A stretch of DNA of 64,000 nt. Origin: Cenarchaeum sp. GTDB lineage: Archaea; Thermoproteota; Nitrososphaeria; Nitrososphaerales; Nitrosopumilaceae. The stretch lies in contig OZ242221.1 in assembly GCA_965206845.1 (NCBI GenBank), positions 1,216,001-1,280,000 of the forward strand, given 5' to 3'. Below, in pieces: positions 45,329 to 63,336 of the stretch (position 1 is its first letter; each line of letters begins with the position of its first letter). The position numbers were made by a program, and so were the translations under genes. The notes under the pieces were generated by a model, which worked only from the letters and a program-made list of their open reading frames with translations, had not been told where the DNA came from and did not search any database.

Positions 45329-46748
45329 ATGACATCTTCTAGACTTGGTATGAAAAATGCAAAATCCCTTCTCTTTGCCGTTTTTATAACTGGAATCATG
45401 GTGGCAGCCGGCCCTATGGCATACGCTGGAAGCGGTTATAATTCCAACTCTACAGGACATGACAAGGACGAACGCATGGAATCATACTCTATGATGAGTC
45501 CAATGCCTGACGAGTCTGGAAGGTACAGCGCACCGCAGCAACAGCTGAGTGACGGGGTTCCTATTTACAAGATCCAGTGTAATGATCCATTGATGCTGTA
45601 CATCAGGGATGCACCAGACCTTGATACCATGATGAGTATGATGGACAAATCGATGGGTGACCATATGGACATGAAGGACGATGCTATGGATGGCATGGAG
45701 GACGACAGCATGTCAGACGATGCCATGGAAGATGACGCCATGTCATGGAAGAGACGATGACCATGGAAGATGACGCCATGTCAGACGATGCCATGGAAGA
45801 TGACGCCATGTCAGACGATGCCATGGAAGATGACGCCATGTCAGACGATGCCATGGAAGATGACGCCATGTCAGACGATGCCATGGAAGATGACGCCATG
45901 TCAGACGATGCCATGGAAGATGACGCCATGTCAGACGATGCCATGGAAGATGACGCCATGTCAGACGATGCCATGGAAGATGACGCCATGTCAGACGATG
46001 CCATGGAAGATGACGCCATGTCAGACGATGCCATGGAAGATGACGCCATGTCAGACGATGCCATGGAAGAGACGCCATGTCAGACGATGCCATGGAAGAT
46101 GACGCCATGTCAGACGATGCCATGGAAGATGACGCCATGTCAGACGATGCCATGGAAGATGACGCCATGTCAGACGATGCCATGGAAGATGACGCCATGT
46201 CAGACGATGCCATGGAAGATGACGCCATGTCAGACGATGCCATGGAAGATGACGCCATGTCAGACGATGCCATGGAAGATGACGCCATGTCAGACGATGC
46301 CATGGAAGATGACGCCATGTCAGACGATGCCATGGAAGATGACGCCATGTCAGACGATGCCATGGAAGATGACGCCATGTCAGACGATGCCATGGAAGAT
46401 GACGCCATGTCAGACGACAGCATGAAAGACGGGCGGATGGATTCCGGCATGATGTCCATGAAGATGGCCTTCGATGATGCCACGCCGTTATGCCTTAGCC
46501 CTGATACGGCTGAAATCCTAACAGAACGCGGCATAGATTTGACACTGTTTTCAACTTTGCACGACGCCATGGTGGAAAAATACGACACTATGACCATGAA
46601 GGACGATGCCATGGAAGATGACGCCATGTCAGACGATGCCATGGAAGATGACGCCATGTCAGACGATGCCATGGAAGATGATGCCATGTCAGACGATGCC
46701 ATGGAAGATGATGCCATGTCAGACGATGCCATGGAAGACAATCCATAG
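45329..46748 (+). CDS. Exported Met/Asp-repeat protein; two apparent frameshifts (near 45745 and 46070)
   Basis: Signal peptide; split two-Cys module; MSDDAMEDDA repeats read across three successive frames. Confidence 0.7.
45761..46419 (+). repeat. 30-bp tandem repeat x22
   Basis: Unit ccatggaagatgacgccatgtcagacgatg; unit 11 lacks one T. Confidence 0.97.
46609..46738 (+). repeat. Second array of the 30-bp repeat x about 4.3
   Basis: Same unit; last two full copies carry gat for gac. Confidence 0.95.
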
Positions 46749-50747: not shown

Positions 50748-51885
50748 AGCTGTGTCCTACAAGCATATATGAACTGGAATCGGTTCTGTCGATTTGATTC
50801 ATTTGGAAACATGTGGCTCAAGACGTTTGAGGCCTTCGAGGGGTGCGGGATACCGATCAAGCTTGCCAACACGTACAAGATGAAGATAATATCGGACACC
50901 GACGTCAAGACGGATCCCATCGACGCGCAAAAGATTGCAAACGCGCTGCACGTGGGGATTATCCCAGAATGCTACGTGGCACCATCGGATTTGCGCGATG
51001 TCAGGGAACTGCTCAGGTACAGGATAAGCATGGTTCAGGCAAGGACTGCCCTGATCAACTACACGCACGGCTTGCTTGACAAGTACGACGTGATGCCAGA
51101 CGTCTCAAGGATGCACAGCAAAAAGGCCATCAGGCTGCTTTCGCAGATACGCCTTAAGAAACCAAATGACAACATGATCCTGCAAAACTGCGTCAAAAGG
51201 ATTGCACATGCCACAGAGCAGATATCTGGCATCGAGGCAGAGATAGACAGGCAGGCCGCAGTCAACGAGGATGTGAAACTGCTGATGAGCATGACTGGCA
51301 TAGAGGCGTTTGCCGCGATGCTGCTGGTATCTGAGATTGGCGGCATCACCAGGTTCAAGACCGCAGACAGACTGGTCTCATGGACCGGGATGTGTCCGCG
51401 AGTCTACCAGTCCGGCAACGTGACGCACCACGGCCGCATGAAAAAGGCGTCAAACCGAAGGGTAAACTGGATAATGATCCAAGCAGCCAACGTGGCAGTG
51501 CGCCATGATGACAGACTGAAGTGGTTCTATCAAAATGCCAAGACAAGGCACGGTGGCAACCACCCGATTGCCATAACACACGTGGCAAACAAGATGGTGA
51601 GGATCATCTGGAAGATGCTGACTGCCAAGGAACCATACGAGTCCCATGACGCAAGCAGATATGCCAAAAAGATGAAAAGAATGAAGAAGATTCTGCAGTA
51701 GGTGCACGGGGCGGACTGGCCAGCTAGGCTGGCCCGCACCAGTACATTTTCTGCAATCCAATTCCTAGCGCTAGCTTTAAAGTTGTACGCGCGTAACCTA
51801 GGCGTGGATCAGAAGTCAGACGGAATCAACGCTTGACTATGACCGGATGTTTTAACATAGGTGGTTATGCCTGTAGGACACAGCC
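50748..51885 (+). mobile_element. Non-autonomous IS5-type element carrying an IS110 fragment
   Basis: TIR agctgtgtcctacaagcata / tatgcctgtaggacacagcc (18/20), same core as the adjacent IS5 ends. Confidence 0.75.
50769..51701 (+). pseudogene. IS110-family recombinase, N-terminally truncated
   Basis: KTDPIDA, EIGGITRF, GMCPRVYQSG motifs; first DEDD acidic strand (GID-type) absent. Confidence 0.85.
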
Positions 51886-51894
51886 TCTGTAGTC

Positions 51895-53109
51895 GGCTGT
51901 GTCCTACTAAGATATACCTGTCCAATAGCAAGGCATATTGATCTGAGGATCGCGGGCCCGCCAAGTGTCTGAAAGGAAACGCGATCAACGACAGTACGAC
52001 CTGATTCAGCAATACCTGCCCGGTCTAATCCTCAACACGATTCTGAAAATAGCCAACGACCTGGGCGACCCGTATACTGCCAGGCCCAGCCTGGGCGGCA
52101 TGACTGCATATCCGCCTAGGGCCATGGCCGCAGTGTGCATAGTCATGGAGGCCGAGCGCAAGACCTATCGCAAGATGGTCGGCCATCTCCGAAACAACCG
52201 CGACACCGTCGCGAAGATCGGACTGCGCAAGATTCCCTCCAAGAGCACCATTGCCCGCGCCTACGGCCTCATTCCGGATCGGTACCTGGCGGAGGTGCAC
52301 CGCAGGGTCATCTGCGAAATATCTGCAGGATCGGTGGCAGGAGACAGCACAGGATACTCTGACAGCAGCTTCGTCAGGTGGTATGACGTGCGGACCGACA
52401 GCGTGAAAACCAAGAGGGGTTGGGTCAAGCTCCACAGCATCATCGATATACAGACGAGGGTGGTGCTTGACTACCTCGTGACGGCCAGCAACGTGGCTGA
52501 CATCATTGGACTGCGAAGCATGCTGGCCAGATTTGAGGGGGGTGCGGGCCACTTCTGCCTGGATTCGGCCTACCTTGCAAGGGATGTGTGCAGCGCGATA
52601 TCGAAGATGGGCATGGTGCCGCGCATCAAGCCGAAATCCAACACGATTCACAACGCCTTTGGAAGCCAGGCGTGGCGCGAGATGGTAGACCTGTCCGTGC
52701 AGGATCCGGACACGTTCAAGTCGGAGTACCACCAGCGCAGCATCATAGAGGCGGTGTTTGGCGCCATCAAGAAGATGTACGGAAACCACACGCGCTGCCA
52801 CAAGCCGGAGAACCAGTGCAAGGAGATTGCAATTCGGATAATCTGCTACAACATAGAACTCGTGGCCAGATCGAAGGCAAGGGACGGCAGGCTCACACCG
52901 AAGATGATCGCTACCATGACTGCATGACCGGCGCGGCCTCCACCGCGCCTACCCAGCGGAGCCTGCGCATCATGCCTTGGGACGGGGGCGATTTTATGGT
53001 TTCCGGATGATCAGTGAAGCGGAGCTGCCACAATGTCTGCGAATTATGAGACGGCCGGTGTCTCAGCCACCAAGCAGGGAGTGGTGGCTTTTATTCATAG
53101 GACACAGCC
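51895..53109 (+). mobile_element. IS5-like insertion sequence
   Basis: TIR ggctgtgtccta / taggacacagcc around an intact transposase ORF. Confidence 0.87.
51965..52927 (+). CDS. DDE transposase (IS5-like)
   Basis: GDSTG, WVKLH, LDSAY, YHQRSIIEAVF motifs. Confidence 0.9.
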   Translation: MSERKRDQRQYDLIQQYLPGLILNTILKIANDLGDPYTARPSLGGMTAYPPRAMAAVCIVMEAERKTYRKMVGHLRNNRDTVAKIGLRKIPSKSTIARAYGLIPDRYLAEVHRRVICEISAGSVAGDSTGYSDSSFVRWYDVRTDSVKTKRGWVKLHSIIDIQTRVVLDYLVTASNVADIIGLRSMLARFEGGAGHFCLDSAYLARDVCSAISKMGMVPRIKPKSNTIHNAFGSQAWREMVDLSVQDPDTFKSEYHQRSIIEAVFGAIKKMYGNHTRCHKPENQCKEIAIRIICYNIELVARSKARDGRLTPKMIATMTA

Positions 53110-53223
53110 GACTACAGATAAATGCTTAATAGTTTGATATATTGAACATATTTGTACGATGCAGAATGAAACGCAAAAGCAATCGGTTATTGTTAGTTTT
53201 GACATAGAAAAGCCTCGGGCATC

Positions 53224-56200
53224 ATGGAGTCATTTGCCAAAGAGGTTAGCAACGTCGGGCGGGGGGTGTTAGGCGTGCGCGTCTTTGGAGTTGCGCTACT
53301 GTCTATAGCTGTTCTGCTTGCGGGAGCCGCCTCGATCGATTTGGCATACGCGGCCGAATACCCTACACCATACCGGCAGTTGAGTGAGGGGGTTGCCGCA
53401 GAGGCCGTTCAGTGCAACGAGCCAAGGGATCTCTACATACGCAACTCTGATTCCCCCGTCTGTATTACCCAGTCCACGTACGACACCCTCGTAGGTCAAG
53501 GCGTGGATCTGGAGATTCCAACGCTGGCGAGCCTGATAAGCTCGATACAGGATGCTGGGTCCGAGGAGAGCCAACAGATAGTGAAGGCGGCAATCCGAAT
53601 GTATGACATCGATCCGGAGGGCGCGCTTGACGCGATCAACTCACTGTCGGATCCCGGCATTGCACACTATCCGTATGTAATTGATCCGGAGACGAGGACT
53701 CTTGTGGCCGACGGTTCGGATCCCGAACAGGCCGGCAAACTGGCTCCGATCTTTGGGGAGTTTGCGACTAATCCGGCGGACGAGATAATCGACCGCCTGC
53801 AGGCAGGCGATGGCATCTGGGAGGACTACACATCCTTGGATCCAGAAACCGGCAACGACCAGCTCAAGCGTTCGTGGCTTGTACTGCACGACGGCTATGT
53901 CTTTGGTGCGGGTTACTATTATTCGATAGAGGAGAAGATGGTTATCGGAATCCAGAATTCCATCGATCTGCTCAAGTCGGAGGGCGAGGGGGCGTTTGAG
54001 ATCATCAACACGGCAAGCGACAGGGGAAAGTACGCGACGATCTTCGATCCTGTTGCCGAGGTGGAACTGGCTAACTCGAGACAGCCTCACAGGGTAGGCG
54101 GCCCATCTCCACCGGTGCCCATACCATGGACAGACTTTGCGAAGATACTCCGAGCTACCGAGGAGCCCATCTGGGCATACGTACTGATCATCAACCCCGC
54201 GACCGGTGAACCCTCTCAGGCGACTGGCTTGTTTGACGATTACGACAAGTACCTTCTGGCAAACGGGTACACATACCCGGCCGAAGATAAGGTCAAGCGC
54301 ATAGTGGACGAGACCATCGCGATGTACGATGCAGACAAGGAGAACACATTTGGGCTCATTTCCAAAGCGTCACTTGATCCACACTATCCGTTTGTGATAG
54401 ACCCGGTAACCAAGAAGATTCTGGCTCATGGCTCGAACCCTGCAAGGGTGGGCGCCAGTTCCCTGTTCTTTGATGATATTACCGACAGGCCGTTTGATGA
54501 GATCATTGCCGAGTTGGAAACCGATGGCAGCGCTTGGGCAAAGTACCTGTACCCGTATCCGGGCACCGACTACACCGAGGAGAAACTCTCTTGGCTCGTA
54601 ATGCACGACGGGTACATCTTCGGGGCAGGATACTATCAGTCTGCGTTCATTGCGCATCCAGACGCACTGATTGGCGATTCCCCGTTCCCCTCTATCTTCG
54701 ACACGGCAGACGACGAATACCTGGTGTACTCTGGAGACACGGTACTGGACGACCCGTTTGCCTCCTCCACGCACAAGCCCACGCGCGTGTGGGCAGACTT
54801 TGGCGTCGTCGACCTTCCACCCCTGGCATTTGAGCCACGCAACCACGAATTTGATATGGTGAACGGCAACGCCCTCCAGGGCGTATTCATTCCGCATCTT
54901 GCCCCCTTCATAAAGCAGGAAGTGGCCCCGAACCTCAACGACCCGTCCCTCCTCTTCCGTTATGTTGCGCTGCTGCTCAACGGCGCGTTTGACGCCGTCG
55001 CTCCATATCACGAGACTGCCGTCGGAGTCAGCTCTCGCATGGAGCACCGCCCGTCCTCGGAATATGAGACAAACGAGAATCCCAATACCGCCGTGATGCA
55101 TGCCGCATACCGCATGATGCTTGAGTTTGCGCCGCAGCGCGCCGATGGTTGGAGAGACATGATGACGGTTCACGGCTTCGACCCGGACGATGAGAGTGGC
55201 CTCGATCTTGACTGTAGCGTGACCCAGGACGTGTCATCGCCGGTGGCGGTGGGCAACTTTGCGGCAAAGTGCGTGCTTGACGCACACAGGCACGACGGCT
55301 TCAACCAGTTCGGGCTTGAGACCGACGGAGTTCCGTTCGGCGACACCACAGGATACGTCTCCGTAAACACGCATGACATGCTCAACGATCCCTCCCGCTG
55401 GCAGCCTCTGATAGCACCCAATCTACAGGGCGAGCTCGTCCCGCAAACGTTCGTTACGCCCCAGTACGCCAATATAGAACCATTCTCGGACTTTGATCCG
55501 CGTTCTGTCCGCGTGCCGCCTCCGACCAACAGCAACCACGCAGACGCGGAGACCTACAAGGCACAGGTGGACACGGTGATCGAGGCCACCCACAACATAA
55601 CAGACGAGCAGAAGATGCTTATAGAATTCTTCGACAACAAGCTCCGCGGATCGCTGTTCCGGCCCACTCTCAGCAACCACCAAAACACGGTCGACTTTGT
55701 GCAGTGGGACTTTTTGGTCAACATGGCCAACTACGACGCCGGCATAGTGGTATGGCAGGAGAAGGCCCGCCACGATGCAGTGCGCCCGGCCTCGGCAATC
55801 CCATACGTGTACGGCGACGAGTTGATAAAGGCCCGTGGCCCGCCCGGAGGGGATCCAGTGGAGGTTCCAGCCAGCGAGTGGACGACCTACGTCAACACGG
55901 CAAACCATCCGGAGTACCCGTCGGCAACCGCCTCCTTCTGCGCAACCGATGCGGTTGTGTGGAGGCTTTACAGCGGCACGGACGAGATAGGCAAGTATGT
56001 CAACATGGATGGCGAGCTGGTGGGAGCATACGAGGGAGTGCGCCCGGCCGGTTCGGCGGCATGGGAACCGGGACAGACGCCGGTAGAGGACGTCCACCTG
56101 GGCTTTGATTCTTGGAGTGAGTACGCGGAGGAGTGTGGCGCCAGCCGCGTCTGGGCCGGAGTCCACTTTTGGCCGTCTGTGCAGGTGTTAGATGAGATAG

Positions 56201-56331
56201 GCGAAGTCGTGGGCACGGCCTCCTTCAAGTATTGGGAGTCCCTGATGCTCGGCGAGGCTCCGCTCAGGGGAGAGTTCAAGCCACTGGAGCCGGATCCGCT
56301 CCTTGACGAGCCGTTCTGGGCTGGTCGCTAA
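53224..56331 (+). CDS. Exported fusion: two-Cys module + 3 Cache-like domains + vanadium haloperoxidase/PAP2-like domain
   Basis: Signal sequence; repeats ending K.SWLV.HDGY.FGAGYY; KARHDAVRP, HPEYPSAT and SRVWAGVHF motifs. Confidence 0.82.
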   Translation: MESFAKEVSNVGRGVLGVRVFGVALLSIAVLLAGAASIDLAYAAEYPTPYRQLSEGVAAEAVQCNEPRDLYIRNSDSPVCITQSTYDTLVGQGVDLEIPTLASLISSIQDAGSEESQQIVKAAIRMYDIDPEGALDAINSLSDPGIAHYPYVIDPETRTLVADGSDPEQAGKLAPIFGEFATNPADEIIDRLQAGDGIWEDYTSLDPETGNDQLKRSWLVLHDGYVFGAGYYYSIEEKMVIGIQNSIDLLKSEGEGAFEIINTASDRGKYATIFDPVAEVELANSRQPHRVGGPSPPVPIPWTDFAKILRATEEPIWAYVLIINPATGEPSQATGLFDDYDKYLLANGYTYPAEDKVKRIVDETIAMYDADKENTFGLISKASLDPHYPFVIDPVTKKILAHGSNPARVGASSLFFDDITDRPFDEIIAELETDGSAWAKYLYPYPGTDYTEEKLSWLVMHDGYIFGAGYYQSAFIAHPDALIGDSPFPSIFDTADDEYLVYSGDTVLDDPFASSTHKPTRVWADFGVVDLPPLAFEPRNHEFDMVNGNALQGVFIPHLAPFIKQEVAPNLNDPSLLFRYVALLLNGAFDAVAPYHETAVGVSSRMEHRPSSEYETNENPNTAVMHAAYRMMLEFAPQRADGWRDMMTVHGFDPDDESGLDLDCSVTQDVSSPVAVGNFAAKCVLDAHRHDGFNQFGLETDGVPFGDTTGYVSVNTHDMLNDPSRWQPLIAPNLQGELVPQTFVTPQYANIEPFSDFDPRSVRVPPPTNSNHADAETYKAQVDTVIEATHNITDEQKMLIEFFDNKLRGSLFRPTLSNHQNTVDFVQWDFLVNMANYDAGIVVWQEKARHDAVRPASAIPYVYGDELIKARGPPGGDPVEVPASEWTTYVNTANHPEYPSATASFCATDAVVWRLYSGTDEIGKYVNMDGELVGAYEGVRPAGSAAWEPGQTPVEDVHLGFDSWSEYAEECGASRVWAGVHFWPSVQVLDEIGEVVGTASFKYWESLMLGEAPLRGEFKPLEPDPLLDEPFWAGR

Positions 56332-56360: not shown

Positions 56361-57701
56361 ATGGCAAAAAGCAAAAGAAGAATAGTCATTCTCGGAGGCG
56401 GGTTTGCAGGAACAGGGTGCACCAGAAAGCTGGAATCGTACTTTCGGAACGACGAGAGTATCGAGATGGTCCTGATAAGCGAGGACAACTTTCTCCTGTC
56501 TACCCCCATGCTGCCGCAGGTGGCCTCTGGCATGGCAGAGGCAAGGCACATCATAACGCCGATCAGGGCAATCTGCAAAAAGACGACGTTCTATGAAGGC
56601 CAGGTAAGAAGCATAGATCCACACGGAAGGATTGTAAACCTGCGCAGAACCGGCAGAAAGCGCGGGATCGGTGTCCGTTATGACTTTCTCGTCATCGCGC
56701 TGGGAAGCAAGACCAACTTCTTTGGCATGAAAGACGTTGAAAAGCACGCGCACACGATGAAGACGCTCAATGACGCCCTGGTACTAAGAAACAAGACCAT
56801 GGACATGCTTGAGCAGTCAGAAACTGAATTCGATCCAATCCACAGGAAAAGCATGCTGACGTTTGTGATTGTGGGCGGCGGGTTTGCGGGAATCGAGACC
56901 GCCGGGGAGCTGATGGATCTGCTGATAGATGCCAGAAAGCACTACCCGGGCATCCGTGAGGATCACATAAGCGTCATAGTGGTAGAATCAGGCCCTACCA
57001 TAATTCCAGGGTTCGGCGAGAAGCTGGCAAAGTTCGCCTATGGGGCGGTAGTAAAGCGCGGAATAGACATCAGGCTAAACTCCGCAGTTACCGGTTTTAA
57101 CGGGATAGAGGCCACCATAAAAAAACTGCGTGGCGAGGGGGCCGGACAGGAGGAGGTAGTCAGAACCAACACGCTGGTGTGGACTGCCGGCGTAGCAGCG
57201 GCCGATGCGATAAGAAATTCAATGCTCAAGACCGAGAGGGGAAAGCTGGTTGTAAACGAGTTTCTCGAGTTGTCTGGCTTTCCGGGGGTTTTTGCAGCAG
57301 GAGACTGCGCGCTGTGCATCAATCCCGAAACAAAGCGGCCGTTTCCCCCGACGGCCCAGATAGCGGAGGCCCAGGCAAAAACCGCGGCCGCTAACCTTCA
57401 CGCGCTGATAAGAAACAAGAAAAAGGCAAAGTTTGATTACAGGGCAAAGGGCCACATGGCAATAATTGGAAAGCGCGCCGGCATTGCGACGTTCATGGGC
57501 AGAAACATTGTGGGTTTTTGGGCATGGATTCTGTGGAGGAACATGTACCTCTCAAGAATACCGGGGACGGAGAAAAGGATCAGAGTGCTCCTAGACTGGA
57601 CGATTGACCTGTTTTTTGGCAGGGATGTGTCAAGAATGGATGTCATGAAAAAGCCCCGGAGTGTGGGGTTCAGGGAGACCGAGGAGCAGGACATCTGGTA
57701 G
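56361..57701 (+). CDS. ndh: Type II NADH dehydrogenase-like flavoprotein
   Basis: Two GGGFAG motifs, WTAGV, AAGDC, PPTAQIA. Confidence 0.88.
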   Translation: MAKSKRRIVILGGGFAGTGCTRKLESYFRNDESIEMVLISEDNFLLSTPMLPQVASGMAEARHIITPIRAICKKTTFYEGQVRSIDPHGRIVNLRRTGRKRGIGVRYDFLVIALGSKTNFFGMKDVEKHAHTMKTLNDALVLRNKTMDMLEQSETEFDPIHRKSMLTFVIVGGGFAGIETAGELMDLLIDARKHYPGIREDHISVIVVESGPTIIPGFGEKLAKFAYGAVVKRGIDIRLNSAVTGFNGIEATIKKLRGEGAGQEEVVRTNTLVWTAGVAAADAIRNSMLKTERGKLVVNEFLELSGFPGVFAAGDCALCINPETKRPFPPTAQIAEAQAKTAAANLHALIRNKKKAKFDYRAKGHMAIIGKRAGIATFMGRNIVGFWAWILWRNMYLSRIPGTEKRIRVLLDWTIDLFFGRDVSRMDVMKKPRSVGFRETEEQDIW

Positions 57702-58360: not shown

Positions 58361-59065
58361 TCACATATCCATCAGTTTGAGGGCCACCGTTCTACCGACC
58401 ACCACGCCATCTTCGTTGAGCTCATCGGCTGCGGTAAGGGTGGTTGGGAATTCGGTTCCGTCCTTTCTGAGCATCCATATCACGGCCGCATCGCGGTATC
58501 CTGCCCTCCAGTTCTCCATATTTGCATGCAGGTTGCCCTTGCTTCTGGGAGCCGTGTGCTCATAAAGGCTGATTCCGATGACCTCGTCTTTTGTGTAACC
58601 CAGATTGTCCAGATAGGACTGGCTGCAGTTCACTATCGTGCCGATGTAGTCTACGGACCTGCGCAGGATATCAGGATCCTCGTAGTCATCCCTCGAGTCG
58701 ACATCGTACAGATCCTGCATCGCCTTGATGACGGAGACATCTCTCATGTCCACGTCCATCCCGATCACTTCGTTGTTTTGATACCTCTTTCTGACTACCT
58801 GTAGCACGTCAATGACATCTCCCCCCTTTGTCATCAGCTTGTTTTTTTTGGAGATGTTTGTAGCGGGCGTATCCCTCCATTTGGCAATCCGTGCCACCAT
58901 CTCCTTGCGGTACCTTTCCGTCGTGTGATCCAAGACGGAGGCGCCGATTACCTCCTCTACGGTGTATCCCAACCTCATGGCATAGTGCATGTTGCAGTCC
59001 CGAATTATGCCATCTATGTCTACGGATCGGTACAGTATGGGTATCGTCGCTTGTACGTTCACCAT
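58361..59065 (-). CDS. Stand-alone tandem PAS-PAS protein
   Basis: Two repeats of RSVD..G.I..C...Y...LGYT..EVIG.S...HT; no output domain. Confidence 0.85.
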   Translation of the reverse strand: MVNVQATIPILYRSVDIDGIIRDCNMHYAMRLGYTVEEVIGASVLDHTTERYRKEMVARIAKWRDTPATNISKKNKLMTKGGDVIDVLQVVRKRYQNNEVIGMDVDMRDVSVIKAMQDLYDVDSRDDYEDPDILRRSVDYIGTIVNCSQSYLDNLGYTKDEVIGISLYEHTAPRSKGNLHANMENWRAGYRDAAVIWMLRKDGTEFPTTLTAADELNEDGVVVGRTVALKLMDM

Positions 59066-59114: not shown

Positions 59115-60248
59115 TGTGGGATCCAGAAAGCAGTTCCCCCCTCACGCCGCATGATACTCCTCCCCTGTCTGCTCGTCAATAACGGCCTCTCCCTTTGGAG
59201 GCATCTTGCGCACAAACGCCTGGGCGGGTGTCTCCCGCTCGTCCCTGTTCAGTGACATGTGCGGCCTGTCATAATTGTACCACTGCATGAACAGATCTAT
59301 GGGATCGCTCTTGCGCATCAGTATTGCCTCAAACTCGGGCAGCTTGCGCTGGATCTCTCCGTGCAGCCTCTCCAGCTTGCCGTTGGTCTGCGGGTGCTTG
59401 ACGCGCGACAGAATCTGGTGGATTCCCAGCCCGACCAGCCTCTTCTCGAAATCAGACGCCCCCTTCCTCTTTGCCTCTGACGCGTTGGCATAGAACTGGG
59501 AGTCGTGGCCGATCATTATCGAAGCCGACTTGCCGTGGTTCTTTATGGCCCCCTCCAGCACGGCCAGCGCGTTCTCCGTAGTGGCATGCTCAAACGCCCC
59601 GTACCCGGTGACAAACCGCGAGGCGTAGTCCTCATAGCACAGGAACCACCTGCCGTCGTCTGACAGCTTGAAGTCCGTGTGCCGCATGGAGTTGGAGTAG
59701 GTGCGCTAGTAGCGAACCCACTTCCGTCTCTGGCTCTTCTTTGGCTGCCCGGATGCCAGATGCTCGTACCTCAATATCTTGTGTATGGCGCTGTGGGGGA
59801 TATTTATTCCGGTGCTGTCCCTTATGCCGTCCTGCATGCCTGTAGCCCTCAAGTGCTCCCTGTAGCGGACAGAGAGCACTGCAGAGCGCTCCCGGCGGTC
59901 CGGGAGGCCGTTCTCGGGTCTGCCCATGCGTGCAGGATAGAGTATCTTGCCGGCATCCGCGTGCTTGTACCGGACCCAGAGCTTCTTGACCCAGCGCGTA
60001 GATACGTCCATGGTCTGGGCAACATGGTTGGCGGTGGCCCCCTTTCGCTTCTGGGCTATGATCCACCTTACCTTGGATTCATCTAGTTTTTTCATTACAC
60101 GAACCCTTCGGCCGCCTATATGTCTCCACAGCCTGGCGTATCCTGGCCGGATCCGAGCGCCTTCATTCCCGGTAAGGGAAACGCTCACACTGCCTTTCAG
60201 GCGTTTTGCTCCTTCCGGCAGGAGGTGAACTACTTTTTGGACTAGATA
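59115..60248 (-). mobile_element. IS481-family element
   Basis: Imperfect 22-bp TIR (tgtgggatccagaaagcagttc / gaactactttttggactagata); no duplication found. Confidence 0.7.
59142..60095 (-). pseudogene. IS481 transposase with in-frame TAG at 59706-59708
   Basis: HTH, HTDFK, HPQTNGKLERLH motifs; nonsense codon in RY*RTYSN. Confidence 0.88.
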
Positions 60249-60301
60249 CCGCCGCTCTTCCCAAAAATAATATATGTATATCAATATCTCAAGTTTCCGT
60301 T

Positions 60302-61849
60302 ATGTACTCGGACAAGCTTGACGAATTCTCACAGCGGATGAGGCAGACATCCGAGGCAGGCGGCGAGGAGCGCATACTGGCCCAGCACGGCAAGGGCAAG
60401 CTTACCGCCAGGGAGAGGATCGGCCTTTTGCTTGACGAGGGAAGCTTTGTGGAGATAGACTCCTTGGTGACGCACCACTACCACGAGTTTGGCATGCAGA
60501 AGAAAAAGTTCTACGGCGACGGCGTAGTCGGGGGCTACGGCAATGTCGACGGCAGACAGATCTATGTCTTTGCCTATGACTTTACCGTGCTGGGGGGAAC
60601 CCTCAGCCAGATGGGGGCCAAAAAGATCACAAAGCTCATGGATCACGCCCTTCGCAACGGATGCCCGATAATCGGCATCATGGACTCGGGAGGCGCAAGA
60701 ATCCAGGAAGGAATCATGAGCCTTGACGGCTTTGCAGACATCTTTTACCACAACCAGCTGGCGTCCGGTGTCATTCCACAGATTACCGCCAGCACAGGCC
60801 CGTCTGCCGGCGGCTCGGTATACTCGCCCGCGATGACTGACTTTGTAATTATGGTGGAGAAGGCAGGCACCATGTTCGTTACGGGGCCCGACGTGGTAAA
60901 GACGGTTGTGGGCGAGGACATCTCCTTTGAGGATCTGGGCGGAGCAGTGACCCACGGCACCAAGAGTGGTGTGGCGCACTTTGTGGCGCAGAGCGAGTAC
61001 CAGTGCATGGACTACATCCGGAAGATACTCTCCTTTATGCCACAGAACAACACGCAGGAGCCGCCCCGGGTAAAGACCGGCGACGACCCCAACAGGATGG
61101 ACCACAACCTGATCAAGATAATGCCCGACAACCCGCTCCAGCCATACGACATGAAGGAGATCATAAGCTCCATCGTGGACGATCACGAGTTCTTTGAGGT
61201 ACACGAGCTCTTTGCGCCAAACATTGTCGTGGGGTTTGCGCGCATGAACGGCAGAACGGTGGGCATAGTGGCAAACAACCCGCTGCACCTGGCGGCCGCA
61301 CTGGATATCGACTCCTCGAACAAGGCGGCGCGCTTTATCAGGCTCTGCGACTCGTTTAACATACCGATAATTACGCTGGTGGATACCCCGGGATACATGC
61401 CGGGCTCAGATCAGGAACACCACGGAATCATCAGGCACGGGAGCAAGCTGCTTTATGCATACTGCGAGGCCACCGTGCCCAAGATCACACTGGTCATAGG
61501 AAAGGCCTACGGCGGGGCATACATCGCCATGGGAAGCAAGAACCTGCGGACCGACATCAACTACGCGTGGCCTACCGCCCGGTGTGCAGTCCTGGGGGCA
61601 GAGGCGGCCGTCCGCATAATGAACAGAAAGGATCTGGCCGCGTCGAAAGATCCCGAGACCCTGAAGAAAGACCTGATCGACAACTTTGCATCCAAGTTTG
61701 ACAACCCCTATGTCGCCGCCTCCCACGGAACCGTGGACTCGGTGATCGATCCCGCCCAGACCCGACCCATGCTCATCAAGGCACTGGAGATGCTTACCAA
61801 CAAGCGCGACCAGCATCTGCCAAGAAAGCACGGAAACATCAACCTGTGA
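60302..61849 (+). CDS. pccB: Acetyl-/propionyl-CoA carboxylase, carboxyltransferase subunit
   Basis: GKLTARERI, DSGGARIQEG, KAYGGAY, RKHGNI motifs. Confidence 0.95.
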   Translation: MYSDKLDEFSQRMRQTSEAGGEERILAQHGKGKLTARERIGLLLDEGSFVEIDSLVTHHYHEFGMQKKKFYGDGVVGGYGNVDGRQIYVFAYDFTVLGGTLSQMGAKKITKLMDHALRNGCPIIGIMDSGGARIQEGIMSLDGFADIFYHNQLASGVIPQITASTGPSAGGSVYSPAMTDFVIMVEKAGTMFVTGPDVVKTVVGEDISFEDLGGAVTHGTKSGVAHFVAQSEYQCMDYIRKILSFMPQNNTQEPPRVKTGDDPNRMDHNLIKIMPDNPLQPYDMKEIISSIVDDHEFFEVHELFAPNIVVGFARMNGRTVGIVANNPLHLAAALDIDSSNKAARFIRLCDSFNIPIITLVDTPGYMPGSDQEHHGIIRHGSKLLYAYCEATVPKITLVIGKAYGGAYIAMGSKNLRTDINYAWPTARCAVLGAEAAVRIMNRKDLAASKDPETLKKDLIDNFASKFDNPYVAASHGTVDSVIDPAQTRPMLIKALEMLTNKRDQHLPRKHGNINL

Positions 61850-63336
61850 TTAAATTGATCGAGAAAGTTCTTATCGCAAACAGAGGCGAGATTGCCCTCC
61901 GGGTAATCCGAACCTGCCGGGCGCTTGACGTCAAGACCGTGGCCGTCTTCTCAGACGAGGACTATGACTCCATGCACGTCAAGCAGGCAACAGAGGCGTA
62001 CCACATAGGCGAGGGCGCGCCGGCAAAGTCGTACCTGAACCAGGAGAAGATACTTGACGTGATACTCTCGTCGGGCGCCGACGCGGTGCACCCGGGGTAT
62101 GGATTCCTCTCCGAGAATGACGACTTTGCACTGGCATGCGAGAAGCGCGGCATCAACTTCATCGGCCCCGCCGCTGACTCGATGAGGCTCTGCGGCGACA
62201 AGATGGGATGCAAGGCGGCAATGCTCAAGGCCAGCATCCCCACGGTGCCCGGAAGCCCGGATCTTGTCAAGGATGCAGACGAGGCTGCCGGGATTGCAAG
62301 CGAGATCGGCTATCCGGTGCTGCTCAAGTCGGTGTACGGCGGCGGCGGACGCGGAATCCGACTTGTAAACAGCGAAGGGGATCTGCGGGATGCCTTTGAT
62401 ACCGTGACAGCCGAGTCCATAGCTGCCGTGGGCAAGTCCGCAATCCTGGTGGAGAAGTTCCTCCAGAAGACCCGCCACATCGAGTTTCAAATGGCCCGTG
62501 ACAGCCGCGGCAACGCAGTCCACATATTTGAGAGGGAGTGCTCCATCCAGCGCCGCAACCAGAAGCTCATCGAGCAGACACCGTCCCCGGTGATGGATCA
62601 GGAGACCCGGGACAGGATAGGCGAACTAGTGGTTCGTGCAGCCAACGCCGTGGACTACACCAACCTGGGCACCGCGGAGTTTCTGCGCGCCGACTCGGGG
62701 GACTTTTACTTTATCGAGATCAACGCCCGCCTTCAGGTCGAGCACCCGATCACCGAACTCGTGTCGGGCCTGGATCTGGTCAAGCTCCAGCTGGACATCG
62801 CCAACGGCGAGCCTCTCCCCTTCAAGCAGAAGGATCTCGTGATGAACGGGTACGCCATAGAGTGCAGAATAAACGCCGAGGACACGTTTCTGGACTTTGC
62901 CCCCTCGACCGGTCCCGTGCCTGATGTGACCGTGCCCTCGGGGCCCGGCGTGCGGTGCGACACGTATCTGTATCCCGGATGCACCGTATCATCGTTCTAC
63001 GACTCACTGATGGCCAAGCTGTGCACCTGGGGCCAGACCTTTGAGGAGTCCAGACTGAGAATGCTGGGCGCGCTCAGGGACTTTTACATATCCGGCGTCG
63101 AGACATCGATTCCGTTGTACCGAACGATTCTGGACACCGAGGAGTACAAACGCGGCCAGCTCACCACCGACTTCCTGAAGCGGTACGGCATTATAGACCG
63201 GCTGTCTGCAGACATCAAGTCCAGAGTGCGGGAGGGCGCCAATGCGGCCCTGGCAGCGGCAATAATCCACTCCGAGTATCTGGGAGCCAGGGTTGATGCC
63301 CCTGCACCAAACCCGTGGAGGTACGCACCTGGGTAG
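61846..63336 (+). CDS. accC: Biotin carboxylase
   Basis: ANRGEIA, HPGYGFLSEN, ERECSIQRR, RLQVEH motifs. Confidence 0.96.
   Translation: MIKLIEKVLIANRGEIALRVIRTCRALDVKTVAVFSDEDYDSMHVKQATEAYHIGEGAPAKSYLNQEKILDVILSSGADAVHPGYGFLSENDDFALACEKRGINFIGPAADSMRLCGDKMGCKAAMLKASIPTVPGSPDLVKDADEAAGIASEIGYPVLLKSVYGGGGRGIRLVNSEGDLRDAFDTVTAESIAAVGKSAILVEKFLQKTRHIEFQMARDSRGNAVHIFERECSIQRRNQKLIEQTPSPVMDQETRDRIGELVVRAANAVDYTNLGTAEFLRADSGDFYFIEINARLQVEHPITELVSGLDLVKLQLDIANGEPLPFKQKDLVMNGYAIECRINAEDTFLDFAPSTGPVPDVTVPSGPGVRCDTYLYPGCTVSSFYDSLMAKLCTWGQTFEESRLRMLGALRDFYISGVETSIPLYRTILDTEEYKRGQLTTDFLKRYGIIDRLSADIKSRVREGANAALAAAIIHSEYLGARVDAPAPNPWRYAPG

Follow-up and report, generated by a model that had tools for sequence, protein, structure and literature searches.

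A vanadium haloperoxidase domain joined to a predicted exported array of Cache repeats in an archaeon

The DNA analyzed here (the window) is a stretch of 64,000 nucleotides from a Cenarchaeum sp. genome (assembly GCA_965206845.1, contig OZ242221.1, positions 1,216,001 to 1,280,000). It contains a gene, 53224..56331 (+), that forms a single intact open reading frame (ORF) of 1035 amino acids (aa); its product is referred to as P0001. We conclude with high confidence, as regards both identity and architecture, that P0001 is a vanadium-dependent haloperoxidase (VHPO) of the bacterial selective type represented by NapH1 and esVHPO, joined through a predicted flexible linker to the exported Cache cassette that is usual in this lineage. 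From its N to its C terminus, the protein consists of a signal segment, a WING-49 module, three sCache_2-like repeats (R1 to R3), a linker, and the VHPO domain (Table 1). Full-length homologs retrieved by database search are 97 to 39% identical to P0001, and the full-length AlphaFold2 (AF2) model has a mean predicted local distance difference test score (pLDDT) of 76.1.

Haloperoxidase domain of P0001

The C-terminal domain matches the Pfam families DUF6851 and VCPO_2nd, both far above their cutoffs. Searched against the sequences in the PDB, it retrieved esVHPO (9ptr) with an E value of 4e-106 over residues 538 to 1009, followed by 9l8x (7e-91), NapH1 (1e-80), and NapH3 (2e-73). Superposition of the full-length AF2 model with Foldseek gave a template modeling (TM) score of 0.91 and a root mean square deviation of 2.7 Å across 482 columns for vanadate-bound XhnO11 (9L8X). 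The scores equal 0.82 to 0.84 for NapH1 and 0.81 to 0.83 for NapH3, and merely 0.45 to 0.47 for the fungal enzyme CiVCPO.

The best match, 9PTR, is the structure of esVHPO, a secreted selective bromoperoxidase (10.1101/2025.10.24.684477). According to the accessible part of that report, the vanadate of esVHPO sits on H496 and is held by K373, R380, R490, S427, and S429, while K329, paired with S429 (K324/S427 in NapH1), hands the halogen to the substrate and E327 forms an anionic gate. The same part of the report describes the Lys-Ser dyad and the gate as conserved in selective VHPOs, which keep hypohalous acid (HOX) rather than release it. The non-halogenating NapH3 has no such dyad, non-selective VHPOs have a Pro in place of the transfer Lys, and the S429A variant of esVHPO loses substrate bromination (10.1101/2025.10.24.684477).

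The equivalents of these residues in P0001 were counted along HMMER alignments, the offsets of which reproduce the published numbering of esVHPO as well as of NapH1. By alignment, no vanadate ligand is missing. K847, R854, S900, R975, and H981, as well as the transfer Lys K806 and the gate residue D804, are invariant in 33/33 VHPO domains of the retrieved relatives; position 902 is Thr in 30 of these domains and Ser in the other 3. The gate residue thus represents a conservative Glu-to-Asp change. Judged from these alignments, selective halogenation chemistry via K806 and T902 is probable.

A sequence-only reading of the window had described the C-terminal domain as VHPO-like, based on three motifs, and had named a vanadate-site superposition on known VHPOs as a way to check this. 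The domain assignment holds, with both Pfam families above cutoff and a complete vanadate site; the motifs were recovered at 55762, 55906, and 56143, and superposition of the fold gave the TM score of 0.91 to XhnO11 reported above. That reading had also noted SAT instead of SGH in motif 2, which is no anomaly. Motif 2 is SAS in esVHPO and SGS in NapH1 and XhnO11, so that SAT fits the selective bacterial clade, with T902 as a Ser-to-Thr change at the dyad position.

Resemblance to NapH3 (E value and TM score given above) raises the possibility of a non-halogenating homolog, either a NapH3-like isomerase or a PAP2-type phosphatase, given that the active sites of VHPOs and acid phosphatases have motifs in common. 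We consider this very unlikely, since both residues of the Lys-Ser(Thr) dyad, missing from NapH3, are conserved here and the nearest solved relatives are active halogenases. No PAP2 family appeared among the Pfam matches of P0001 at E values up to 1, and the phosphatase reading was dropped for lack of a family match; the PAP2-like motifs are explained by VHPO membership.

Two features set the archaeal VHPO domains apart. The C-terminal tail lies beyond the end of the alignment to solved VHPOs and is specific to the archaeal VHPO subfamily; its pLDDT declines from approximately 76 to below 50. In addition, the archaeal group contains an insertion of approximately nine residues (GLDLDCS...) with an invariant Cys pair, C664/C683 (window positions 55213-55272), which is absent from the alignments of esVHPO, XhnO11, and NapH1. 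This pair may form an additional disulfide, as would befit an enzyme outside the cell.

The predicted exported cassette

The best 19-residue Kyte-Doolittle windows of P0001 begin at residues 14 to 23, the sole transmembrane-like segment lies at residue 11, and the sequence LAYA/AEYP follows directly after this N-terminal hydrophobic stretch. No hydrophobic segment was found past residue 43. From these features we infer a Sec-type signal peptide (or signal anchor), and with it export and cleavage.

The segment that follows matches the WING-49 model NF058652 with an E value of 1.1e-9 and 38.3 bits, against a cutoff of 22. The same module exceeds this cutoff in 7/9 further scanned ORFs of the P0001 genome, where its neighbors are type-1 or type-2 solute-binding domains (PBP-type, SBP_bac_3), DUF285/PARCEL with PKD repeats, or Cache repeats; an ORF of 822 aa combines Cache repeats, WING-49, and ANF_receptor. 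WING-49 stands behind a signal sequence in the ORFs C1:76899-79142, 277010-278806, 231958-233622, and 1416508-1418118, in some cases with no known domain as its partner, and a weak WING-like match occurs in a 143-aa ORF of the window (45329-45760, +). A literature search, which left most subscription journals outside its reach, found no paper on the name WING-49.

Internal repetition was assessed by Smith-Waterman scores against 200 shuffles, as BLAST of P0001 against itself returned the identity match alone. The z scores equal 40.7 for R1/R3, 9.8 for R1/R2, and 13.0 for R2/R3, compared to -1.2 to 1.3 for seven control comparisons with or between VHPO segments. In P0001 itself, the Pfam matches of the repeats remain below the gathering thresholds (sCache_2, PF17200, 19.9 bits versus 25; dCache_2, 21.5 versus 26.5). 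However, the curated cutoffs for both families are passed by paralogs in the P0001 genome and by homologous arrays; in the array P0073, for example, sCache_2 reaches an E value of 5e-171 across 13 stretches. When queried alone against PDB sequences, R3 matched the sCache_2 domains 4k08 (E value, 3.4e-4) and 5g4y (3.5e-3). In the AF2 model of residues 1 to 536, the repeats mostly have pLDDT values of 85 to 95 and show an N-terminal helix followed by a PAS-like antiparallel sheet. A Foldseek search with the repeat model returned 145 matches at E values of ≤1e-3, with PAS and Cache domains on top. The repeats of P0001 are divergent sCache_2-type modules, a designation chosen because their own scores are subthreshold while those of paralogs and homologous arrays pass.

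Neither a signaling domain nor a further transmembrane segment was detected C-terminal of the repeats by Pfam, hydrophobicity, and transmembrane-like segment scans. A Cache receptor combines flanking transmembrane helices with a cytoplasmic signaling output, and this combination was not found in P0001. The protein has Cache folds yet is no Cache receptor. These results agree with the sequence-only reading, which had proposed an exported protein with a signal sequence, a two-Cys module, and three Cache-like repeats at approximately 53560-54640 (R1 and R3 alike, R2 degenerate), followed by no transmembrane segment or signaling output. The N-terminal hydrophobic segment is indeed the only one, although the signal peptide itself is a prediction; the two-Cys module is the WING-49 domain with C64 and C80; and the repeats lie at 53560-54642, with R2 confirmed as the degenerate one and with a Cache identity borne out by the matches of R3, the predicted fold, and the related arrays.

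The pocket of sCache_2 domains is exemplified by the chemoreceptor PscD, for which the accessible part of the report (PMC5062169) gives Tyr90, His103, Tyr143, and Lys156 as carboxylate contacts and Trp92, Trp145, and Phe126 as residues lining the pocket. Alignment to 5g4y places H402, Y441, K454, and F424 of R3 at the positions of His103, Tyr143, Lys156, and Phe126. The positions of Trp92 and Trp145 are taken by V391 and Y443, and Tyr90 aligns with P389, with Y388 beside it. The carboxylate-contact set is present in R3, partial in R1, and lost in R2. Across 11 three-repeat fusions, His, Tyr, and Lys are found in 11, 10, and 11 proteins for R3, in 5, 10, and 11 for R1, and in 1, 0, and 0 for R2. 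Among all retrieved repeats, 210/422 have the His-Tyr-Lys set (191/367 in stand-alone arrays).

In the linker between the array and the enzyme, residues 484 to 509 are predicted to be disordered in both AF2 models, with pLDDT values of 30 to 46 for residues 484 to 536 in the model of residues 1 to 536 and of 31 to 43 for residues 484 to 509 in the full-length model. A complex prediction for the VHPO part (residues 538 to 1035) and the repeat array (108 to 480) scored 0.00, which speaks neither for nor against an interface.

Table 1. Features of the P0001 gene and its surroundings, with positions in the window
Feature	Residues	Position	Strand	Basis or remarks
Whole gene, P0001: exported WING-49 / three sCache_2 / linker / VHPO fusion		53224..56331	+	ORF list and translation
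Signal segment (predicted): basic N-region, hydrophobic core, A-Y-A/A site	1-43	53224..53352	+	Hydrophobicity; conserved in homologs
WING-49 module, conserved C64 and C80	49-93	53368..53502	+	NCBIfam NF058652
R1, sCache_2-like; pocket positions D163/Y202/K215	113-235	53560..53928	+	
R2, degenerate sCache_2-like; pocket positions N284/V320/A333 (lost)	236-352	53929..54279	+	
R3, sCache_2-like; H402/Y441/K454 and F424 kept	354-473	54283..54642	+	
Linker	484-537	54673..54834	+	Low pLDDT
VHPO domain	538-1009	54835..56250	+	Pfam, PDB sequence matches, Foldseek
DUF6851	586-728	54979-55407	+	Pfam E 9.6e-39, 133.4 bits versus cutoff 27
D804-N805-K806, equivalents of esVHPO anionic gate E327 and halogen-transfer K329 (NapH1 K324)	804-806	55633..55641	+	HMMER alignments
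VCPO_2nd	832-986	55717-56181	+	Pfam E 5.2e-28, 98.7 bits versus cutoff 27
Motif 1, K847-x6-R854-P855 (KARHDAVRP; esVHPO K373, R380)		55762..55788	+	Alignment
Motif 2, H895-PEYP-S900-A901-T902; S900 = esVHPO S427, T902 = dyad S429 (NapH1 S427)		55906..55929	+	
Motif 3, S974-R975-x5-H981 (SRVWAGVHF); R975 = esVHPO R490, H981 = vanadate-ligating H496		56143..56166	+	
C-terminal tail, PDPLL..P.WTGR	1010-1035	56251..56328	+	Conserved among relatives with or without the fusion
Second insertion sequence, IS110-type transposase at 50769-51701		50748..51885	.	In tandem with the first
First insertion sequence, DDE transposase at 51965-52927, inverted repeat GGCTGTGTCCTA at borders		51895..53109	.	Ends 114 bp upstream of the P0001 start codon
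Type-II NADH dehydrogenase (NDH-2) gene		56361..57701	+	Pfam Pyr_redox_2 and NDH2_C; directly downstream of P0001

Distribution, genomic setting, and expression

Of the 53 database matches of P0001, 14 combine the two modules; 20 have just the VHPO and 19 just the repeats. Within the same family of archaea, a VHPO was found in 11/301 genomes, belonging to 3/27 genera. The fused form (open frame of 1013 to 1042 aa) occurs in 4/301 of these genomes; the other VHPOs are unfused, measure 556 to 773 aa, and number up to three per genome. In a phylum-wide sample, DUF6851 was detected in 5/401 genomes, all within the family of P0001, and in 0/345 genomes of other families. As a control, PF21167 gave a match in 0/14 control genomes, with positive controls limited to G000 and its relatives. 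A search of P0001 against 1.84 billion cluster representatives yielded 1949 matches at E values of ≤1e-3. The best 150 of these 1949 representatives comprise 3 with both modules, 77 with the VHPO only, and 70 repeat arrays of 1 to 16 copies, so that the fusion is rare.

The two modules are combined in different ways. The repeats of fused proteins number 3, 5, 6, or 10. P0017 shows the reverse order, with the VHPO in front and six repeats behind it. A tree of 33 VHPO domains places the fused forms in three clades, each well supported, with unfused forms between them, on an unresolved backbone; from this topology, histories ranging from one gain followed by losses to three gains are possible. 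Among 28 long relatives that were scanned, the arrays are partnered with SBP_bac_3, ANF_receptor/Peripla_BP_6, SBP_bac_5, or DUF285, and none joins a signaling output to its Cache array. A shared pattern emerges, that of exported enzymes or binding proteins assembled from interchangeable extracellular modules. Other VHPOs of the clade (P0166, P0078, and P0186) are fused with a GDSL lipase and RTX repeats, with Big_9/cadherin-like/HYR (Ig-like) modules, or with DUF4114. In P0003 (1070 aa, on a 3.3-kb contig), three VHPO domains stand in tandem, at 83% identity to P0001, and the outer two are cut by the contig ends.

The gene could in principle be an artefact, either an assembly chimera or a decaying gene beside insertion sequences (ISs). 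Two such elements lie directly upstream, and in a related strain the loose contig ends at both gene borders match IS termini. Nevertheless, we regard an artefact as extremely unlikely. The frame is intact, the catalytic residues are all conserved, and the architecture recurs in many contigs at 97% down to 39% identity. Moreover, the junction between repeats and VHPO is bridged by contigs of 1436 nucleotides (nt) (54448-55883) and 687 nt (54243-54929) from RNA-library runs and by one of 628 nt from a DNA run. A chimera would have undone the original proposal of a fusion; it was rejected on the strength of the same architecture in 4 family genomes and 14/53 matches and of the junction-bridging contigs.

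The P0001 genome consists of one contig of 1.65 Mb with a G+C content of 57% and is 99.99% complete. Eight of its ORFs have Cache repeats, among them three-repeat proteins of 432, 443, and 478 aa that stand alone. The largest of these three (C1:1531744-1533180) shares the signal and WING-49 header of P0001 and matches residues 25 to 480 of P0001 at 46% identity; an IS end of the GGCTGTGTCCTA type adjoins its gene. The exported 432-aa protein is encoded at C1:1280564-1281862, 564 bp past the end of the window.

Both ISs upstream of P0001 end in the 12-nt inverted repeat GGCTGTGTCCTA, which is present in 29 copies in the 1.65-Mb genome; several differently built elements end in this sequence. 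In the related strain (95 to 99% alike; runs X16 and X17), contigs break at 53164 and 56364 into IS-terminus-like sequence in inverted orientation. These breaks on either side of the VHPO gene resemble a composite-transposon-like bracket. The adjacency to the NDH-2 gene is kept in the distant relative L011, where the downstream gene is 70% identical, and not in L009 or L010, and it was not taken as a functional clue. In L010, the VHPO gene lies inside a block that runs contiguously without a VHPO gene in the P0001 genome. The IS context, the variable synteny, and the patchy distribution fit horizontal acquisition and local mobility of the P0001 gene.

No biosynthetic genes are evident near P0001; the scanned flanks contain the two transposases, NDH-2, a PAS protein, integrase-like ORFs, and acyl-CoA carboxylase subunits. 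The PAS protein (58361-59065, -) measures 234 aa and has two PAS domains and no output domain, and in L011 a copy with 77% identity is located 1.3 kb upstream of the gene for the fusion. At 59142-60284 (-), an ORF with an rve-type integrase core (181 aa) is preceded by a 192-aa ORF without a family match; the pair looks like a split or frameshifted IS3-like transposase and is located just upstream of the acyl-CoA carboxylase genes (60206-63336).

The host had been read as archaeal from sequence, which agrees with the names given to the relatives: three fused loci are labeled 'MAG: Nitrosopumilus sp.' (metagenome-assembled genome), and an unfused VHPO is labeled 'Cenarchaeum sp.'. Where the relatives have a public annotation at all, it reads 'hypothetical protein'. 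The gene or part of it was found in 20/24 listed sequencing runs from 12 studies, several of which are labeled sponge metagenome. Two metatranscriptomic runs of one sponge-metagenome study yielded contigs 95 to 99% alike across the P0001 gene. Positions 52500-53051 and 56916-57467 had no RNA-library cover; the related strain differs in its flanks, and the contigs cannot show absence. The contigs of the two runs across the gene hint at expression of P0001.

Candidate function and comparison with known systems

The best explanation overall, which we hold with moderate confidence, is a secreted selective halogenase with a Cache binding or tether arm. After secretion, P0001 would reside at the cell surface or in the matrix around the cell and would bind vanadate via H981, with K847, R854, S900, T902, and R975 holding it in place. 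It would use H2O2 to oxidize bromide, chloride, or iodide. As in esVHPO and NapH1, no hypohalous acid would be released; the halogen would pass via K806, with T902 as its partner and D804 as its guard, to an organic substrate that occupies a pocket of its own. The Cache repeats would be no switch; their part would resemble that of the non-catalytic binding modules found in secreted glycoside hydrolases. R3, and to some extent R1, would tether the enzyme to, or recruit, a small molecule with a carboxylate group or an acidic polymer of the matrix, with R2 as a structural spacer. The setting would be a sponge-associated, catalase-less ammonia oxidizer that modifies an exogenous metabolite or signal, in the manner of secreted bacterial relatives with alkyl quinolones. 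Most alkyl-quinolone VHPOs (AQ-VHPOs) have signal peptides and act on exogenous substrates, as stated in the accessible part of PMC11312541.

For the repeats themselves, the sequence-only reading had left two options, namely that a Cache ligand controls the activity or that the activity is aimed at it. We lean toward the second and, by analogy, toward a binding or tether role, because the repeat number varies (3, 5, 6, or 10), the order can be inverted, the linker is predicted to be disordered, and output-less arrays are common, often beside solute-binding domains. The same observations disfavor the first option. An enzyme switched allosterically by a small molecule at a Cache repeat would conform to the role of Cache domains as sensors in nearly all characterized cases, and R3, the repeat nearest to the enzyme in the main clade, keeps each of its His, Tyr, and Lys in 10 to 11 of 11 homologs. 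Ligand gating is nonetheless quite unlikely in view of the predicted disorder of residues 484 to 509 between R3 and the enzyme, the inverted order in P0017, the variable copy number, and the presence of fused forms in three separate well-supported clades. In addition, the same arrays are common without any output, and the literature search found no precedent for such gating.

Several points weigh against the tethered halogenase that we prefer. The dyad position is occupied by Thr902 rather than Ser, although the hydroxyl is retained. A variable repeat number is also compatible with regulation by the VHPO-proximal repeat. The His-Tyr-Lys set is found in only 19/55 repeats of fused proteins versus 191/367 in stand-alone arrays, and the pocket mapping relies on an alignment of approximately 20% identity and a predicted structure. 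The VHPO-adjacent repeat of other fused clades has HHK (P0012 and P0014) or QYK (P0015) at these positions; the pocket is thus plausibly functional in R3 of the main clade, though not universally across the fusions. Finally, expression is no more than hinted at, because RNA libraries can contain DNA.

The main rival is a peroxide sink or biocide. The enzyme would then mainly remove extracellular H2O2 or turn diffusible hypohalous acid or haloamines against neighbors, and the Cache/WING cassette would do no more than anchor it at the cell surface or in the host matrix. No family of catalases, heme peroxidases/KatG, or Mn-catalases was matched in the P0001 genome, and H2O2 inhibits catalase-negative ammonia-oxidizing archaea, as the accessible part of PMC13552627 states with reference to Kim et al. 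2016. The missing catalases fit this rival but do not discriminate, because only 11/301 family genomes carry a VHPO; for the same reason, the gene would be no general solution to peroxide stress. Export into halide-rich surroundings and the use of the WING-49 cassette as a general header of host surface proteins also suit a sink or biocide. Conversely, P0001 has K806 and D804, which mark the selective clade, and T902 at the position of the dyad Ser; members of this clade retain HOX, according to the work on esVHPO (10.1101/2025.10.24.684477), and free HOX would be harmful and would be quenched by ammonia. On balance, we regard this rival as unlikely, though it deserves consideration.

A more specific version of the tethered halogenase is that the R3 pocket captures a particular carboxylate-bearing host or microbial metabolite (amino acid derived, a keto acid, or a signal) and feeds it to the halogenation site, in what would be the first haloperoxidase system described in Archaea. 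This remains doubtful. If true, the archaeon would contribute to halogenated chemistry or signal interference in the sponge holobiont, and a sensor fold would have been repurposed as a substrate-recruitment arm. The literature search, in which most subscription journals were out of reach, uncovered no paper that connects haloperoxidases with Thaumarchaeota, Cenarchaeum, or ammonia-oxidizing archaea, and none that connects a vanadium haloperoxidase with a Cache domain.

The P0001 family would extend the selective VHPOs to Archaea. It also illustrates how nature can string Cache modules, which are known as signaling inputs, on exported proteins without an output and join them to an enzyme. Identification of the Cache ligand would point to the substrate of the enzyme as well as to a novel use of the commonest extracellular sensor fold. 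The family also suggests that the peroxide sensitivity, halide chemistry, and symbiotic lifestyle of ammonia oxidizers may be connected, which can be tested. Selective VHPOs are sought-after biocatalysts, and exploration of their biology beyond actinobacterial gene clusters has only just begun, according to the accessible parts of 10.1101/2025.10.24.684477 and PMC11312541.

Among known systems, esVHPO of Enhygromyxa salina (9PTR/9PTS) is the best solved-structure sequence match. It is secreted, as predicted for P0001, and has the same vanadate ligands, the transfer Lys, and an acidic gate; it acts on exogenous substrates. In contrast to P0001, it is bacterial, consists of a single domain of approximately 530 aa without Cache or WING modules, and has Ser in the dyad and Glu in the gate, where P0001 has Thr and Asp. 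It also lacks the C664/C683 insertion and the conserved C-terminal tail of the archaeal VHPO group. The similarity of P0001 to esVHPO and the AQ-VHPOs is an overall one and does not imply alkyl-quinolone specificity. NapH1 (3W35/3W36) and XhnO11 (9L8X) share the fold (TM scores of 0.82 to 0.91), the S-G/A-S/T form of motif 2, and the position of the Lys-Ser dyad; unlike P0001, they come from natural-product gene clusters and have no appended binding domains. The sCache_2 domains of chemoreceptors (PscD, 5G4Y; Adeh_3718, 4K08; 4EXO; TlpB) have the His/Tyr/Lys carboxylate contacts seen in R3. However, these domains are single, flanked by transmembrane helices, and coupled to signaling, whereas those of P0001 are three in tandem (1 to 16 elsewhere), soluble, exported, and without output. 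Secreted enzymes can have appended non-catalytic binding modules, such as the carbohydrate-binding modules of glycoside hydrolases; to our knowledge, no such role has been described for Cache domains. Despite their different fold, carbohydrate-binding modules offer a functional analogy to the Cache arrays, with a variable copy number, either order relative to the enzyme, flexible linkers, and stand-alone forms.

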